Assembly (NCBI RefSeq): GCF_058153355.1
Contig: NZ_CM177019.1
Direction: 5' to 3' (one strand)
DNA length: 64,000 bases
The notes below the pieces were generated by a model that was given only the letters and a program-made list of their open reading frames with translations, had not been told where the DNA came from and did not search any database. The position numbers were made by a program, and so were the translations under genes. Of this stretch, positions 14,100 to 57,045 are shown in pieces (positions within the stretch are counted from its first letter, which is position 1; each line of letters starts with the position of its first letter).

Positions 14100-14190
14100 A
14101 GCACATTGCCTGATGCGACGCTGCGCGTCTTATCAGGCCTACGGTGATTCATCGGATAACCACTGTGACGGCGCATCCGACAATTAAACT
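14100..14190. repeat. REP-type extragenic palindromic element(s) between gpmA and aroG
   Basis: gcctgatgcgacgctgcgcgtcttatcaggcctac REP-like palindrome plus a second GC-rich palindrome. Confidence 0.5.
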
Positions 14191-19037: not shown

Positions 19038-19064
19038 AAAAAAGCGCCTTTAGGGCGCTTTTTT
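19038..19064 (-). terminator. bidirectional rho-independent terminator at end of tRNA array
   Basis: A6-GCGCC-tttag-GGCGC-T6 hairpin. Confidence 0.7.
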
Positions 19065-19193: not shown

Positions 19194-19220
19194 AAAAAAG
19201 CGCCTTTAGGGCGCTTTTTT
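19194..19220 (-). terminator. second copy of the same terminator hairpin immediately 3' of tRNA-Lys 19225-19300
   Basis: Identical A6-GCGCC-tttag-GGCGC-T6. Confidence 0.65.
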
Positions 19221-25818: not shown

Positions 25819-25967
25819 TTTACATCCCGGTAATGCAACAAAAGTTAGAGCTTTTAAACGCTGCTACTATACGCGCGCGATTGAGGTTTGGGAATGAGGG
25901 CAAGTTAAGGGAGCGTAAAAATTTATGGGCCTGAAGCGGCCCATAAATTTTTAAAGAGAATTCTGAT

Positions 25968-36454: not shown

Positions 36455-37825
36455 ATGGCTCGTTCTTTTAAAGTCTTATCGCCAACGGCAATCCTCGGGT
36501 ATGGATTCCCGGAAGAGAGCTTCCGCAAAGCGATGGCAGAATCGCCCGATCTGATCGCCGTTGATGCAGGCTCTTCCGATCCTGGCCCCCACTACCTCGG
36601 GGCGGGCAAACCGTTTACCGATCGCGCAGGGGTCAAACGCGATCTACGCTATATGATCACCGCAGGCGTGCAAAATAATATACCGGTGGTGATCGGAACG
36701 GCCGGCGGTTCTGGTGCAGCTCCACACCTGGAGTGGTGCCGAGAAATAATTCATGAGATTGCCCGGGAAGAGCACCTCGCGTTCTCGATGGCGCTGATCC
36801 CGGCAGACGTTGACAAAGCCATCGTCCACCAGGCGCTGGATAACGGCAAAATCACGGCGCTGGATTTTGTCCCGCCGTTAACCCACGACGCGATTGACGA
36901 AAGTACGTATATCGTCGCGCAAATGGGCGTCGAACCCTTCCAGCAGGCGCTGAAAGAAGGCGCGCAAGTGGTGCTGGGCGGGCGCGCTTACGACCCGGCC
37001 TGCTTTGCTGCGCTACCGATCATGCAAGGCTTTGATGAAGGTCTGGCGCTGCATTGTGGGAAAATCCTTGAATGCGCGGCAATCGCCGCAACGCCCGGCT
37101 CAGGCTCTGACTGTGCGATGGGCATCATTGATGACAACGGCTTTACGCTGAAGACATTTAATCCGAAGCGTAAATTTACCGAAACGTCAGCGGCTGCACA
37201 CACACTGTATGAGAAATCCGATCCCTACTTCCTGCCAGGACCTGGCGGCGTGTTGAACCTGAAAGGTTGCACATTTAAAGCGATCAATGATGGCGAAGTT
37301 TACGTCAGCGGTTCTAAGCATGAAGAAACGCCCTATGCCCTGAAACTGGAAGGTGCGCGGCGGGTGGGTTTCCGCTGTTTGACCATCGCCGGAACGCGCG
37401 ACCCGATCATGATCGCCGGGATCGATAACATCATCGATGAAGTCAAAACCAGCGTTTCGCGTAATCTGTCCTTAGACGATGACAGCATTCGCATCAATTT
37501 CCACCTGTACGGCAAAAACGGGGTGATGGGTAACCATGAACCGATGCAAACTGCCGGGCATGAGCTGGGGATTGTCCTTGATGTAGTTGCACCGACCCAG
37601 GAAATTGCCAACAGCGTTTGCTCGCTGGTGCGCTCTACCATGCTGCACTACGGCTATGAAAACCGCATCGCTACCGCAGGCAACCTGGCGTTCCCGTTCT
37701 CCCCTTCTGATATCCAGGGCGGGCCGGTATACGAATTTTCCATATATCACCTGATTGAAGCCAACGACGCTCTGCGTTTTGATTTCCATATTGAACAGGT
37801 GACGCCAGAAGGAGTTCAGGCATGA
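36455..37825 (+). CDS. conserved protein of unknown function, DUF1446 (AtuA-like), 456 aa
   Basis: ORF starts 4 nt after methylaspartase stop; family assignment from memory of AtuA-like proteins, not from a search. Confidence 0.6.
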   Translation: MARSFKVLSPTAILGYGFPEESFRKAMAESPDLIAVDAGSSDPGPHYLGAGKPFTDRAGVKRDLRYMITAGVQNNIPVVIGTAGGSGAAPHLEWCREIIHEIAREEHLAFSMALIPADVDKAIVHQALDNGKITALDFVPPLTHDAIDESTYIVAQMGVEPFQQALKEGAQVVLGGRAYDPACFAALPIMQGFDEGLALHCGKILECAAIAATPGSGSDCAMGIIDDNGFTLKTFNPKRKFTETSAAAHTLYEKSDPYFLPGPGGVLNLKGCTFKAINDGEVYVSGSKHEETPYALKLEGARRVGFRCLTIAGTRDPIMIAGIDNIIDEVKTSVSRNLSLDDDSIRINFHLYGKNGVMGNHEPMQTAGHELGIVLDVVAPTQEIANSVCSLVRSTMLHYGYENRIATAGNLAFPFSPSDIQGGPVYEFSIYHLIEANDALRFDFHIEQVTPEGVQA

Positions 37826-38139
37826 AACAGTCAATTGTCTCACTGGCGCAAGTCATTCGTTCGAAAAATGCCGGACCTTACGAACTGGTTTTAGATATTT
37901 TATTTAAAACGAAAGAAAACTATGAGCGAGTAAAATCATCAGGGCAATTAACCCCAGAACTGATTGCGCGCTTATATCATGTTGAACCTGACTTTATTCA
38001 TCGTATTGTCTGGTTTGATCCTTCTAACGCAGTAAAAATTGTCATGCCACGAGATATTATCTCCGGGAATGTAGGTGACAATGATGTCTATGGCGCACAG
38101 CAACATGCACCTTTATTAAATATGAGTTTCGATTTGTAA
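37822..38139 (+). CDS. small conserved protein, DUF4387-like partner, 105 aa
   Basis: ATGA overlap with the preceding ORF; AT-rich; DUF1446/DUF4387 pairing is from memory. Confidence 0.5.
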   Translation: MKQSIVSLAQVIRSKNAGPYELVLDILFKTKENYERVKSSGQLTPELIARLYHVEPDFIHRIVWFDPSNAVKIVMPRDIISGNVGDNDVYGAQQHAPLLNMSFDL

Positions 38140-38225
38140 AAATCCGAACACTTTTAGCCAACTGACATCCCGTCACTTATTGCAGCTCAACACTTCAGCT
38201 ATTTGTAAGGTTGTTATAGCAGGTA

Positions 38226-38251
38226 GATGCCTGAATCTCTATTCAGGCATC
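38226..38251 (+). other. perfect 11-bp-stem hairpin between the DUF4387-like gene and the transporter
   Basis: gatgcctgaat-ctct-attcaggcatc; followed by pyrimidine-rich sequence but no clean T-run. Confidence 0.4.
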
Positions 38252-38299
38252 CACTTCTCCTGATTCTGATTTATCGCCGTGCACCTGATGGAGGAAAAA

Positions 38300-39580
38300 A
38301 TGAAGAAAATAAGTTTAACCACGATGATTCTTTTGGCGCTGGTACTTGGAATGATTATCGGCGTAGTGCTCAATAACACTGCTTCACCGGAAACAGCAAA
38401 ACTCTATGCGCAAGAAATATCGATATTCACGACGATTTTCTTACGACTGATAAAAATGATTATCGCTCCGTTAGTGGTCTCTACCCTGGTGGTAGGTATT
38501 GCTAAAATGGGCGATGCCAAAGCCCTTGGTCGTATTTTTTCTAAAACACTCTTTTTATTTATTTGCGCCTCATTGCTGTCAATTGCCTTAGGCTTGATAA
38601 CGGTAAATTTCTTCATGCCAGGCACAGGAATTAATTTTGTTGCACACGGTGCCGAAACCACCGGAGTGGTCGCGTCAGAACCCTTTACACTAAAAGTATT
38701 TATTTCGCATGCTTTCCCCACCAGCATTGTCGATGCCATGGCGCACAATGAAATTTTGCAAATCGTGGTGTTCTCAATTTTCCTCGGCTGTAGCCTGACG
38801 GCGATTGGTGAGAAAGGCAGCGCCATCGTTCACGCCTTAGATTCGCTGGCACATGCCATGTTAAAGCTCACTGGCTACGTCATGCTCTTCGCTCCCCTGA
38901 CCGTATTCGCCGCTATTTCAGCATTGATTGCTGAACGAGGACTGGCAGTTATGGTGAGCGCCGGGATCTTTATGGGTGAATTTTATTTCACCATGTTATT
39001 ACTTTGGGTGCTGCTTATCGGTCTGGCCATCGTTTATGTCGGCCCCTGCATCAGACGCCTGACCCGCGCCCTTTCAGAACCCGCCCTGCTGGCATTTACC
39101 ACATCCAGTTCTGAAGCTGCTTTTCCGGGAACGCTTGAAAAACTGGAGCAATTTGGCGTTTCCCCCAAAATTGCCAGCTTTGTCTTACCCATTGGCTACT
39201 CATTTAATCTCGTTGGATCAATGGCCTACTGCTCCTTCGCCACAGTTTTCATCGCCCAGGCCTGCAATATCCATTTATCCATCGGTGAGCAAATCACCAT
39301 GCTGTTGATCCTGATGTTGACCTCGAAAGGAATGGCTGGCGTACCACGCGCCTCAATGGTGGTTATCGCCGCCACGCTCAACCAGTTCAATATTCCGGAA
39401 GCGGGGCTGATCTTGCTGATGGGCGTTGATCCGTTCCTTGATATGGGGCGTTCCGCGACAAACGTCATGAGCAACGCAATGGGCGCTGCGATGGTGAGTC
39501 GGTGGGAAGGCGAACATTTCGGCGAGGGTTGTCGGGGTAAAGCATTAAAACCCAATGAATCGAACGTTGCTCTGCCCTGA
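38300..39580 (+). CDS. dicarboxylate/amino acid:cation symporter (DAACS)-family transporter
   Basis: ORF 38279..39580; start at ATG 38300 (GGAGG 5 nt upstream); polytopic membrane protein resembling GltP/DctA-type symporters. Confidence 0.7.
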   Translation: MKKISLTTMILLALVLGMIIGVVLNNTASPETAKLYAQEISIFTTIFLRLIKMIIAPLVVSTLVVGIAKMGDAKALGRIFSKTLFLFICASLLSIALGLITVNFFMPGTGINFVAHGAETTGVVASEPFTLKVFISHAFPTSIVDAMAHNEILQIVVFSIFLGCSLTAIGEKGSAIVHALDSLAHAMLKLTGYVMLFAPLTVFAAISALIAERGLAVMVSAGIFMGEFYFTMLLLWVLLIGLAIVYVGPCIRRLTRALSEPALLAFTTSSSEAAFPGTLEKLEQFGVSPKIASFVLPIGYSFNLVGSMAYCSFATVFIAQACNIHLSIGEQITMLLILMLTSKGMAGVPRASMVVIAATLNQFNIPEAGLILLMGVDPFLDMGRSATNVMSNAMGAAMVSRWEGEHFGEGCRGKALKPNESNVALP

Positions 39581-39687: not shown

Positions 39688-41340
39688 ATGTCCAAACCAT
39701 TTATCTGGCAAGAACCGTTTCTACAAAATAAAGACGGTACAGAATATACATTAATTAGCGATCAACATATTACAGTAACGGAATTAGACGGCGAAGAAGT
39801 AATAAAAATCGCTCCTGAAGCATTAACGCTGCTTGCCCGGCAGGCATTTTATGAAGCCTCTTTTTTCTTACGTTCCGCTCATTTGCAACAGGTCGCCAGC
39901 ATTCTTAACGATCCGCAGGCCAGCAGTAATGATAAATACGTTGCGTTGCAGTTATTACGTAATGCTGAAGTCTCAGCAAAAGGGGTATTACCCAACTGTC
40001 AGGATACCGGCACCGCAACTATTGTTGCCAGTAAAGGGCAACAGATATGGACCGGAGGCAACGACGCCGAAGCCTTAAGCAAAGGCATTTACACCACTTT
40101 TCAGGAAAATAATTTGCGCTTTTCACAAAATGCGCCGCTGGATATGTATACCGAAGTCAATACGTACACCAATCTACCGGCGCAGATTGATATCAGCGCC
40201 GTCGCTGGTGATGAGTACCATTTTCTCTGTATTAATAAAGGGGGCGGCTCCGCCAATAAAGCCGCACTTTATCAGGAAACCAAATCCTTATTGCAACCAG
40301 AAAAACTGACCGCATTTTTAATCGAAAAAATGAAATCGCTGGGCACCGCTGCCTGCCCGCCTTACCACATCGCCTTTGTCGTCGGAGGGCTTTCAGCCGA
40401 TCAAACCTTAAAAGTTGCCAAGCTGGCCTCTACGAAATATTACGACAATTTGCCCACCAGCGGAAACGAGCAGGGACAAGCATTCCGTGATATTGAGCTG
40501 GAAAAAGCGTTGCTCGAAGCCAGTCAGCAATTTGGTATTGGTGCGCAATTTGGGGGTAAATATTTCGCTCATGATATTCGCGTCATTCGTCTGCCGCGTC
40601 ACGGTGGCTCCTGCCCGATAGCTATGGCGCTCTCCTGTTCTGCCGATCGCAATATCAAAGCAAAAATTAACAAGCATGGTATCTGGCTGGAAAAACTCGA
40701 ACACAATCCGGGGCAATATATTCCAGCCTCACTGCGGGAAGAAAATCACGCGCAACATGTACAGCTGGATCTAAACCGTCCGTTGCGTGACGTGATGCAG
40801 GATCTCGCCAGATTACCGGTAGGCACCCGCGTGTCGTTAAGTGGTCCCATCGTAGTGGCGCGCGATATCGCCCACGCCAAAATAAAAGCGCGGCTGGATA
40901 GCGGCGAATCGATGCCGGATTATCTGAAGCATCATATTGTCTATTACGCTGGCCCGGCGAAAACACCGGAGAACATGGCCTGCGGTTCACTGGGTCCAAC
41001 CACGGGCGGTCGAATGGACGGTTATGTCGAAACCTTCCAGGCGGCTGGCGGCAGTCTGGTAATGTTATCGAAAGGTAACCGCAGCCAGCAGGTCACCGAT
41101 GCCTGTCACAAACATGGCGGCTTCAATCTGGGAAGTATTGGCGGTGCAGCTGCGTTACTGGCGCAAGAATATGTCAAAAGTCTGCGTTGCCTGGAATACC
41201 CGGAGCTGGGTATGGAAGCGGTGTGGATGATGGAAGTGGAAAATCTGCCCGCATTCATCCTGGTCGATGATAAAGGCAATAATTTCTTTAGTCAGTTTGA
41301 GCAGCAACACCGCTGCGCCAGTTGCCCTGCGGGACATTAA
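39688..41340 (+). CDS. fumD: class I (Fe-S) fumarate hydratase paralog, probable mesaconase/fumarase
   Basis: 550-aa ORF colinear with E. coli FumA/FumB as recalled ([70 protein letters not shown]); symbol fumD is from memory of the O157:H7 mesaconase. Confidence 0.8.
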
Positions 41341-41349
41341 GGAAAATGA

Positions 41350-41952
41350 ATGGAAGCGCGAATTTCAACTGAACGGCATGTGCAGCGCCAGCAGAAATTG
41401 AAGGAACAGGTCGATACGCGCGTCGCGGCGGCGATAGAGAAAAAAGGGATCTTGATTGTTTTCACCGGCAACGGCAAAGGGAAATCCACTGCCGCGTTTG
41501 GTACTGTGACGCGCGCGGTGGGTCATGGCAAAACGGTGGGGGTTGCGCAGTACATCAAGGGGCAATGGGACAACGGCGAATACAACCTTCTCCAGCCGCT
41601 GGGGGTTGAGTTTCATATTATGGGAACCGGTTTTACCTGGGAGACTCAGAACCGGCAAGCGGATATCGACGCGGCGAAAGAGGTCTGGTCGGAAAGCAAA
41701 CGGATGCTGGCTGACAAGCGTTACGACTTAGTGGTGCTTGATGAGCTGACCTATATGCTGGCTTACCATTATCTGGACACCGAAGAAGTGATCACTTCTC
41801 TGCAAAACCGCCCGGCACAACAAAGTGTCATTGTCACCGGACGCAGTTGCCACAGTCAGATATTAAAAATGGCGGATACGGTCAGCGAAATCCGCCCCGT
41901 CAAACATGCTTTTGATAACGGCATTCAGGCGCAGCCGGGTATCGACTGGTAA
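41350..41952 (+). CDS. cob(I)alamin adenosyltransferase (CobA/BtuR family)
   Basis: 200-aa ORF with P-loop GNGKGKST and close resemblance to E. coli BtuR as recalled (VFTGNGKGK.TAAFGT.TRAVGHGK, LDELTYM, ELRPVKHAF). Confidence 0.85.
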   Translation: MEARISTERHVQRQQKLKEQVDTRVAAAIEKKGILIVFTGNGKGKSTAAFGTVTRAVGHGKTVGVAQYIKGQWDNGEYNLLQPLGVEFHIMGTGFTWETQNRQADIDAAKEVWSESKRMLADKRYDLVVLDELTYMLAYHYLDTEEVITSLQNRPAQQSVIVTGRSCHSQILKMADTVSEIRPVKHAFDNGIQAQPGIDW

Positions 41953-41985
41953 TAACTGCGCCTGGCATCCCGCCAGGCGCAGGTT

Positions 41986-47084: not shown

Positions 47085-47255
47085 TGTCGGTCACCCGTAG
47101 GCCTGATAAGACGCGCAAGCGTCGCATCAGGCATCGCGTGTCGGATGCGGCGCGAGCGCCTTATCCGACCTACATTGATGGTCCCCGTAGGCCTGATAAG
47201 ACGCGTCAGCGTCGCATCAGGCTTCAATTGCCGGAGAAAGCGATAATGCCTCATC
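47085..47255. repeat. REP/BIME cluster between sucB and sucC
   Basis: Alternating GC-rich palindromes cgtaggcctgataagacgcg...cgtcgcatcaggc and gtcggatgcggcgcgagcgccttatccgacctaca. Confidence 0.6.
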
Positions 47256-51475: not shown

Positions 51476-51760
51476 GATTTCCTGCATTTCTTTTGTAGGC
51501 CGGATAAGGCGTTCACGCCGCATCCGGCGCTGTTTGCCTGATGCGACGCTTGCGCGTCTTATCAGGCCTACGATTCCTGCATTTCTTTTGTAGGCCGGAT
51601 AACGCATTCACGCCGCATCCGGCACTGGTTGCCTGATGCGACGCTTGCGCGTCTTATCAGGCCTACGATTTCTGCATTTCTTTTGTAGGCCGGATAAGGC
51701 GTTCACGCCGCATCCGGCACTGGTTGCCTGATGCGACGCTTGTGCGTCTTATCAGGCCTG
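51476..51760. repeat. three tandem ~95-bp REP/BIME units between sdhB and sucA
   Basis: Unit gatttctgcatttcttttgtaggccggataaggcgttcacgccgcatccggcactggttgcctgatgcgacgcttgcgcgtcttatcaggcctac repeated three times with a few substitutions. Confidence 0.7.
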
Positions 51761-56985: not shown

Positions 56986-57014
56986 CTGCTGATTCCTAAG
57001 CAGTAAATTCTGTT

Positions 57015-57045
57015 AACCCGCCTTTAAAAGGCGGGTTAATTTTTA
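57015..57045 (+). terminator. rho-independent terminator after gltA
   Basis: aacccgcc-tttaaaag-gcgggtt hairpin followed by aattttta. Confidence 0.65.

Follow-up and report, generated by a model that had tools for sequence, protein, structure and literature searches.

The DNA analysed here, referred to as the window, is a stretch of 64,000 nucleotides from contig NZ_CM177019.1 of NCBI RefSeq assembly GCF_058153355.1. It is E. coli DNA, with 100% identity over 601 nt to strain EC42405. Pfam matches, together with the RefSeq annotation of the identical strain, identify the locus as the methylaspartate (mesaconate) cluster of glutamate fermentation, which is found in about 1,124 of 5,426 complete E. 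coli genomes. The genes are arranged in the order glmS-glmL-glmE (glutamate mutase), methylaspartate ammonia-lyase (mal), an AtuA-like gene (atuA) and a DUF4387 gene, followed by a spacer and then by a transporter gene, fumD and cobO, with a convergent LysR-family gene at the end of the cluster. The features around the spacer, and the distal end of the operon, are as follows:

37822-38139, plus strand: DUF4387 gene, the last of the tightly packed enzyme block glmS-glmL-glmE-mal-atuA-DUF4387 (Pfam E=2.6e-39; RefSeq)
38290-38294, plus strand: Shine-Dalgarno (SD) sequence GGAGG of the transporter gene (direct reading)
38300-39580, plus strand: gene for an SDF-family (GltP-like) dicarboxylate/amino acid:cation symporter (Pfam E=2.2e-102; RefSeq)
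39688-41340, plus strand: fumD, class I fumarase (mesaconase)
41350-41952, plus strand: cobO, B12 adenosyltransferase
41956-41982, plus strand: terminator-like hairpin (11 pairs, 9 of them G-C, then a T-run) with GTTTTAC, the true end of the operon

The genes of the enzyme block overlap or lie no more than 19 nt apart, making the spacer the main discontinuity of the operon. A first-pass annotation of this DNA had reported a 160-bp gap between a DUF4387-like gene and a transporter gene, and both gene assignments are upheld by the Pfam matches listed above; the gap is exactly 160 nt, from the DUF4387 stop codon at 38137-38139 to the transporter ATG at 38300. A scan for sigma-70 promoters found no plus-strand site in either the E. 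coli or the Citrobacter spacer. Because the spacer has no promoter-like site and the genes on both sides are tightly packed, expression of the transporter, fumD and cobO needs read-through from upstream.

The methylaspartate-pathway cluster was described by Kronen & Berg 2015 (PMC4682846), who detected no pathway enzyme activity in a cultured O157:H7 strain, and left open the regulation and physiological role of the cluster. A literature search found no paper on the flanking genes of the spacer (ECs0755/0756) or on the spacer itself. In E. coli Z0117EC0051 (locus L065), the annotation gives the transporter gene a frameshift and lists it as a pseudogene. On an IncFIB plasmid of Salmonella Macclesfield (L006:7893-8882) the whole cluster is present, with a glutaminase gene (glsA) between the transporter gene and fumD; thus, the cluster is plasmid-borne in at least one lineage.

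Within the spacer lies a hairpin, termed P2, with the following parts and surroundings:

38201-38223, plus strand: ATTTGTAAGGTTGTTATAGCAGG, the diverged E. coli counterpart of the TTCATGCGGTTGGTCACAAC block of other genera (alignment A2, described below)
38222-38255, plus strand: extended stem, GGTAG...CCACT, with an A·C mismatch (38225/38252) in the window allele
38226-38251, plus strand: core hairpin P2, an 11-bp perfect stem of arms GATGCCTGAAT/ATTCAGGCATC with the loop CTCT (direct reading)
38252-38280, plus strand: pyrimidine-rich tail 3' of the stem, without a U-tract, CACTTCTCCTGATTCTGATTTATCGCCGT (direct reading)

The perfect 11-bp stem and its 4-nt loop had been described in the first-pass annotation, and every detail of that description is correct when read directly from the sequence. 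The pyrimidine-rich 3' flank without a clean U-tract, also reported there, is likewise confirmed, the sequence directly 3' of the stem being CACTTCTCCTGATTCTGATTT/CACUUCUCCUG. The 5' end of P2 is positioned 87 nt downstream of the DUF4387 stop codon, and 49 nt separate P2 from the transporter start. The 26-nt core has a predicted free energy of -15.3 kcal/mol and is retained by the centroid fold of the whole spacer. The window contains seven perfect hairpins with stems of 11 bp or more (loop 3-12), as compared with 0.18 on average, and never more than 1, in dinucleotide shuffles (n=60), and the P2 stem is far above chance expectation. Other perfect palindromes in the window are found at 25916-25953, with 16-bp arms TAAAAATTTATGGGCC/GGCCCATAAATTTTTA, and at 57013-57039, with 13-bp arms; in addition, two identical terminator-like hairpins (AAAAAAGCGCC...GGCGCTTTTTT) are situated 156 nt apart at 19038-19064 and 19194-19220, in an apparent tRNA gene region.

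The CCAC that directly follows the stem in the window is a minority allele. Most E. coli have CTAC at this position, as do seven of the seven other E. coli alleles that were examined, and the CTAC allele forms a 15-bp stem of -22.5 kcal/mol, as compared with -17.9 kcal/mol over 38222-38255 for the window allele. The window allele is carried by about 16 genomes, with some 1,070 of the 1,124 differing from it at 1-2 of 47 nt. Two E. coli alleles, that of the window included, each disrupt one pair of the stem, and two independent A-to-G changes found among E. coli polymorphisms create wobble pairs in P2. A search with a 47-nt query (E<=10) placed P2 at one locus per genome, confined to about 1,123 cluster-bearing genomes; a second 'place' per genome returned by this search was presumed to arise because the palindrome also matches its own reverse strand. 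In E. coli strain 100416 (L002:2249-3010), an IS1B element has replaced DUF4387 together with the 5' portion of the spacer, such that the IS1 end adjoins CCTGAATCTCT... and the junction falls inside the 5' arm of the hairpin. A 7.3-kb contig of a 'Collinsella sp.' metagenome-assembled genome (L007) is E. coli-like in this region, with a 100% identical DUF4387 and the common E. coli spacer allele, and has probably been mis-binned.

To place the hairpin in a wider context, the DUF4387 protein was searched against species-representative genomes, yielding 58 loci. Folding of single sequences revealed a stem-loop approximately 86-96 nt past the DUF4387 stop codon in many genera, namely Citrobacter, Klebsiella, Enterobacter, Salmonella, Buttiauxella, Lelliottia, Pluralibacter, Raoultella and the cryptic Escherichia. 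The homologous stems are 13-17 bp long and often rich in G+C (-34 kcal/mol for that of C. braakii), with arms that differ in sequence and loops of 4-11 nt. Thirty-six orthologous spacers, from Escherichia, Citrobacter, Klebsiella, Enterobacter, Salmonella and Buttiauxella, were aligned with MAFFT on sequence only (alignment A2). In A2, the E. coli P2 shares columns 90-104/116-130 with the 13-17 bp stems of 33 other species, and P2 is recovered when RNAalifold is run on this alignment.

Across the 36 spacers, which include 34 different stem haplotypes, 93.2% of P2 cells are paired, and both sides have changed in 13 of the 15 pairs. By comparison, both-side changes number 7.4±1.6 in shuffled alignments, none of 500 shuffles attaining the observed value, and controls in which the helix was slid along the alignment give only 20-48% pairing. 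For instance, seven of the 15 pairs have changed on both sides between the common E. coli allele and C. braakii, yet each of the two stems is fully paired. The aligned sequences thus indicate that the base pairs of P2 are kept by compensatory substitutions across species, beyond the level of the controls. Identity is 0.73-0.77 in the P2 arms and 0.63 in the loop, close to the level at third codon positions of the flanking genes (0.66-0.675), and selection has therefore acted on pairing rather than on sequence. P2 is very probably a selected RNA stem-loop.

The substitutions also carry a strand signature. In P2, G·U pairs outnumber A·C mismatches by 56:15, and in a second hairpin of the spacer, P1, by 36:4. 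That G·U is tolerated so much more readily than A·C argues for an RNA structure of the sense strand, and against a symmetric DNA operator. On these comparative grounds, P2 is the E. coli form of a conserved sense-strand mRNA stem-loop in the untranslated spacer between the enzyme block and the transporter-fumD-cobO block. The first-pass annotation had treated the hairpin alone, overlooking both its conservation across genera and the conserved block that adjoins it in genera other than Escherichia. Its suggestion of an RNase processing or stabilising stem gains a firmer footing as regards a selected sense-strand RNA stem, given the 13 of 15 covarying pairs, the excess of G·U over A·C and the folds of individual species; a stabilising or processing role is the best fit.

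In every enterobacterial lineage carrying the cluster, a stable local hairpin occurs 20-130 nt past the DUF4387 stop codon, and the sequences of these hairpins are unrelated between lineages. Relative to shuffled sequences, z-scores range from -2.5 to -9.7 in 18 of 20 loci, the other two being Pseudescherichia-group loci at about -1.2 to -1.3. The Pseudescherichia group has only a P1-like hairpin, with the P3 helix described below retained and P2 absent, and P2 is thus dispensable there. In Morganella, a long stem whose interior differs between strains, and yet is paired in each, is followed by a small hairpin with a T-run. A hairpin with a T-run also occupies the corresponding region of Yersinia alsatica, and in both Morganella and Y. 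alsatica the region scans as terminator-like. In E. whittamii and Escherichia sp. E1V33 (L009 and L010, 4316-4600), the cluster has no transporter gene; DUF4387 is followed by a spacer of 262-284 nt, with a different, 13-bp hairpin at +33, and then by fumD. Outside this gene context, the DUF4387 genes of Shewanella and of Bacillota and proteobacterial metagenome-assembled genomes have no comparable hairpin. This pattern across lineages, including the loci that lack a transporter, suggests that the need for a hairpin is tied to the 3' side of the enzyme block, and not to the start of the transporter gene.

Such an arrangement is suggestive of a nuclease-resistant stem that protects the 3' end of the enzyme mRNA and uncouples it from the transporter mRNA, in the manner of malE-malF. 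This is the reading that we tentatively prefer, at somewhat less than an even chance. Under this model, a 3' end would be made by endonucleolytic cleavage, or by Rho-dependent or leaky termination, downstream of P2, and the 3'-to-5' exonucleases PNPase and RNase II would stall at the P2 stem. The enzyme-coding segment would then be longer-lived than the transporter segment, comparable to the differential decay of malE-malF, and from a single promoter the cell would obtain more of the soluble enzymes than of the membrane transporter. Where the 15-bp stem is followed by UUCU, as in the common E. coli allele, slight intrinsic termination may be added to this effect.

Protective 3' structures have been found to mark most of the boundaries within differentially decaying E. 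coli operons (Dar & Sorek 2018, PMC5927463). They are conserved in Salmonella and Enterobacter, and typically stabilise soluble components over membrane components (PMC5927463). Stability, a position at the boundary of two operon segments and conservation in relatives, which are expected of a protective structure, are found in P2. As with the malE-malF type, P2 is a stable stem-loop without a U-tract, at a boundary between soluble proteins and a membrane transporter in one transcription unit, and is conserved across enterobacterial genera. Whereas the malE-malF element consists of dispersed REP copies, P2 is confined to a single copy at this locus. It also stands apart by its position in a 160-nt spacer, since the majority of newly mapped protective structures fall within the coding sequence downstream (PMC5927463). 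At 87 nt past the stop codon, P2 is out of reach of ribosomes that terminate there, which favours the protective model. Against this model, the conserved context in genera other than Escherichia (the 21-nt block at 92-99% identity, a possible P3 and the CCCTAC motif, all discussed below) would be needless for a simple exonuclease barrier, the Pseudescherichia group does without P2, and two E. coli alleles have each lost one pair.

A second possibility is that P2 acts as a leaky intrinsic terminator or attenuator, at which some RNA polymerases would stop, resulting in less transcription of transporter-fumD-cobO relative to the enzyme genes. Intrinsic terminators and attenuators likewise have a hairpin with G+C pairs and a short loop beyond the end of a gene, and the stable stem that the first-pass annotation had in mind when it proposed a partial terminator or attenuator is indeed present (11-15 bp, a 4-nt loop, -15.3 to -22.5 kcal/mol). 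The stem of the common E. coli allele, moreover, is followed by UUCUCCUGAUUCUGAUUU. What is missing is the U-tract, in E. coli, in the cryptic Escherichia and in the Citrobacter-type lineages, and thus P2 is not a canonical terminator. A terminator scan that demands at least five T in eight positions did not call P2 in the window, and the same scan made no call in the Citrobacter spacer, where the tail 3' of the stem is ACCCUACAC; in C. braakii the tail, ACCCTACACAAT, is almost free of U. Furthermore, the same-strand genes continue past P2, and the operon has its own terminator-like site elsewhere, at 41956-41982.

Terminator-style scores, calculated with a formula in the style of d'Aubenton-Carafa 1990, agree with this picture. 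The window allele scores -50.7, C. braakii -35.4 and the common E. coli allele -10.2, the last being the least negative of the scored E. coli and Citrobacter stems, whereas positive values are obtained for the Y. alsatica hairpin (+10.3) and for a control terminator within the window (+15.7). These scores, together with the nearly U-free tail of C. braakii, imply that termination is not the property conserved alongside the stem. The T-runs that follow the hairpins of Y. alsatica and Morganella in the equivalent spacer lend the idea some credit. On balance, the suggestion of a partial terminator or attenuator stands as to the stem, fails as to the U-tract and survives as a weak option, and leaky termination as the main role of P2 is, in our estimation, unlikely.

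Exonuclease protection, as noted above, does not call for the sequence conservation seen around P2 in other genera, and this conservation raises an alternative: a larger leader RNA might regulate the transporter gene in cis, with P2 as its variable arm. Directly 5' of the stem is a 21-nt block, TTCATGCGGTTGGTCACAAC, with 92-99% identity across 33 non-Escherichia species (L042:4381-4402 and homologues). The motif CCCTAC is found 0-5 nt 3' of the stem in 38 of 51 spacers, including those of Yersinia (about positions 4447-4452 in L042), and is kept even where the stem itself is not conserved. At the ribosome-binding site, CCGATGGAG is 100% conserved in the non-Escherichia genera. Conservation over the whole spacer is 0.79, as compared with 0.66-0.675 for synonymous sites. 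The P1 hairpin covaries in five of its seven pairs, and RNAalifold proposes two further elements, an enclosing helix P3, which is kept in the Pseudescherichia group, and a helix P4 that covers the SD sequence. The leader would thus comprise P1, the 21-nt block, P3, P2, CCCTAC and the SD region, with a protein, small RNA (sRNA) or metabolite as its putative reader, and with translation or read-through as the step controlled. A Citrobacter-type leader was found nowhere else in 5,426 E. coli genomes, and among 72,556 plasmids only at the orthologous Salmonella plasmid locus.

Among sRNAs, Spot 42 is kept as no more than a lead, since ACCCUAC is the exact complement of nucleotides 1-7 of Spot 42 (its 5' seed, in a verified sequence). 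The duplex energies of this 7-nt seed match are marginal, being equalled in 5-20% of shuffles, and the site is absent in E. coli. GcvB was also considered, the C/A-rich stretches of the spacer resembling its targets, and rejected: with a verified GcvB sequence, the duplex energies of the R1 region equal those of shuffles (z from -0.7 to +1.6). Three further candidates were set aside. Sequestration of the SD by P4 finds no support in the predicted unpaired probability of the SD, which is no lower than with shuffled upstream sequence; the conserved block misfits the GG-N10-GC spacing of a sigma-54 promoter, as judged by eye; and a small ORF that would begin with the conserved ATG of TTCATGCGG lacks an SD and is contradicted by loop indels whose lengths are not divisible by three.

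Insertions of approximately 110-200 nt, which look ERIC/IRU-like from their resemblance to the consensus, occur in two spacers (approximately L029:4320-4515 and L018:4440-4560). In K. oxytoca, the insertion is upstream of P1 and leaves P1, P2 and the SD contiguous with the transporter gene, as would be expected if these parts formed a leader. In one C. amalonaticus strain, the insertion separates P2 from the 3' strand of P3, and the P2 of that strain is degenerate.

Several observations weigh against a leader RNA. Neither the E. coli nor the C. braakii spacer has a relevant family match in Rfam, even at E<=10, and the changes in P3 and P4 are one-sided only. A long perfect stem that is free in sequence is atypical of a ligand-binding core, and the lineages without a transporter retain a hairpin past DUF4387. 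In E. coli, moreover, P1, P3, P4 and CCCTAC are degenerate and P2 alone is recognisable. We therefore regard a leader RNA in this general sense as unlikely, if worth keeping in view. Its most elaborate form is doubtful: a locus-specific cis-regulatory RNA of about 110-150 nt, composed of P1, UUCAUGCGGUUGGUCACAAC, P3, P2, CCCUAC and CCGAUGGAG, through which a trans-acting factor (a Spot 42-like sRNA, a protein or a metabolite) would gate the transporter, mesaconase and B12 adenosyltransferase, the E. coli form being reduced.

Stabilisation could also operate in the opposite direction, with RNase E cutting upstream and the stem shielding the 5' end of the transporter-fumD-cobO transcript. Such 5'-protective hairpins, of the papBA type, account for about 30% of decay-regulated operons (PMC5927463), and, like them, P2 stands a few tens of nucleotides (49 nt) upstream of a downstream cistron on a polycistronic mRNA. 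Unlike them, a hairpin past DUF4387 persists in lineages lacking the downstream gene, and in those with a terminator past DUF4387, and so is tied to the upstream gene; in addition, no obvious RN|WUU site is seen by eye just 5' of the stem. A role in 5' protection is accordingly improbable.

The resemblance of P2 to REP elements raises the further question of whether it is a decayed REP-like relic that is functionless today. REPs typically sit in intra-operon spacers of this kind, and P2 has TGCCTGA, TCAGGC and CTAC (GTAG in the other arm) in common with the Z2-type REPs of the window, the CTAC being replaced by CCAC in the window allele. The likeness is limited to the outer stem: P2 is 32 nt rather than about 35-40 nt long, its stem is perfect, and it lacks the central GCG-rich mismatched stem of a REP. 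Rather than dispersed copies, as expected of a REP or BIME, there is one locus in each cluster-bearing genome, and the Citrobacter-type homologues of P2 have no REP resemblance; membership of the REP family was rejected on the copy-number test. Genuine REP/BIME copies (Z2 and Y types) are present in the window at 14108-14143, 47097-47222 and 51495-51760, where they flank neighbouring operons. The many compensatory changes that have kept P2 paired across genera are not expected of a functionless relic, making this origin very improbable as an explanation of what P2 is now.

Least credible of all is a DNA palindrome bound by a dimeric regulator such as the adjacent LysR-type protein, since, for all the perfection of the inverted repeat and the presence of a LysR-family gene at the cluster end, the protein-binding palindrome of the first-pass annotation founders on arms that, in place of conserved half-sites at fixed spacing, stand 4-11 nt apart and are nearly free in sequence (0.73-0.77 identity, about neutral) if complementary, on a strand bias (G·U far above A·C) that makes sense for one RNA strand only, and on scans of the E. 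coli and Citrobacter spacers in which no promoter-like site was found close by.

Most plausibly, then, P2 is an intra-operon stability or boundary element of an ordinary kind, for which the protective stem remains our preferred mechanism. The methylaspartate cluster is an accessory locus of EHEC and of many opportunistic enterobacteria, and an RNA element conserved within the operon's single large spacer would mark the point at which the enzymes are uncoupled from the genes for the transporter, mesaconase and B12 adenosyltransferase. P2 offers a precise target for mutagenesis, and the conserved block that adjoins the stem in other genera is the part most deserving of experiment. As an element that is locus-specific, not a REP, and maintained purely by compensatory evolution, P2 represents a clean case of an intra-operon stem-loop, and supports the view that structures governing differential decay are widespread, including in operons that have been acquired horizontally.
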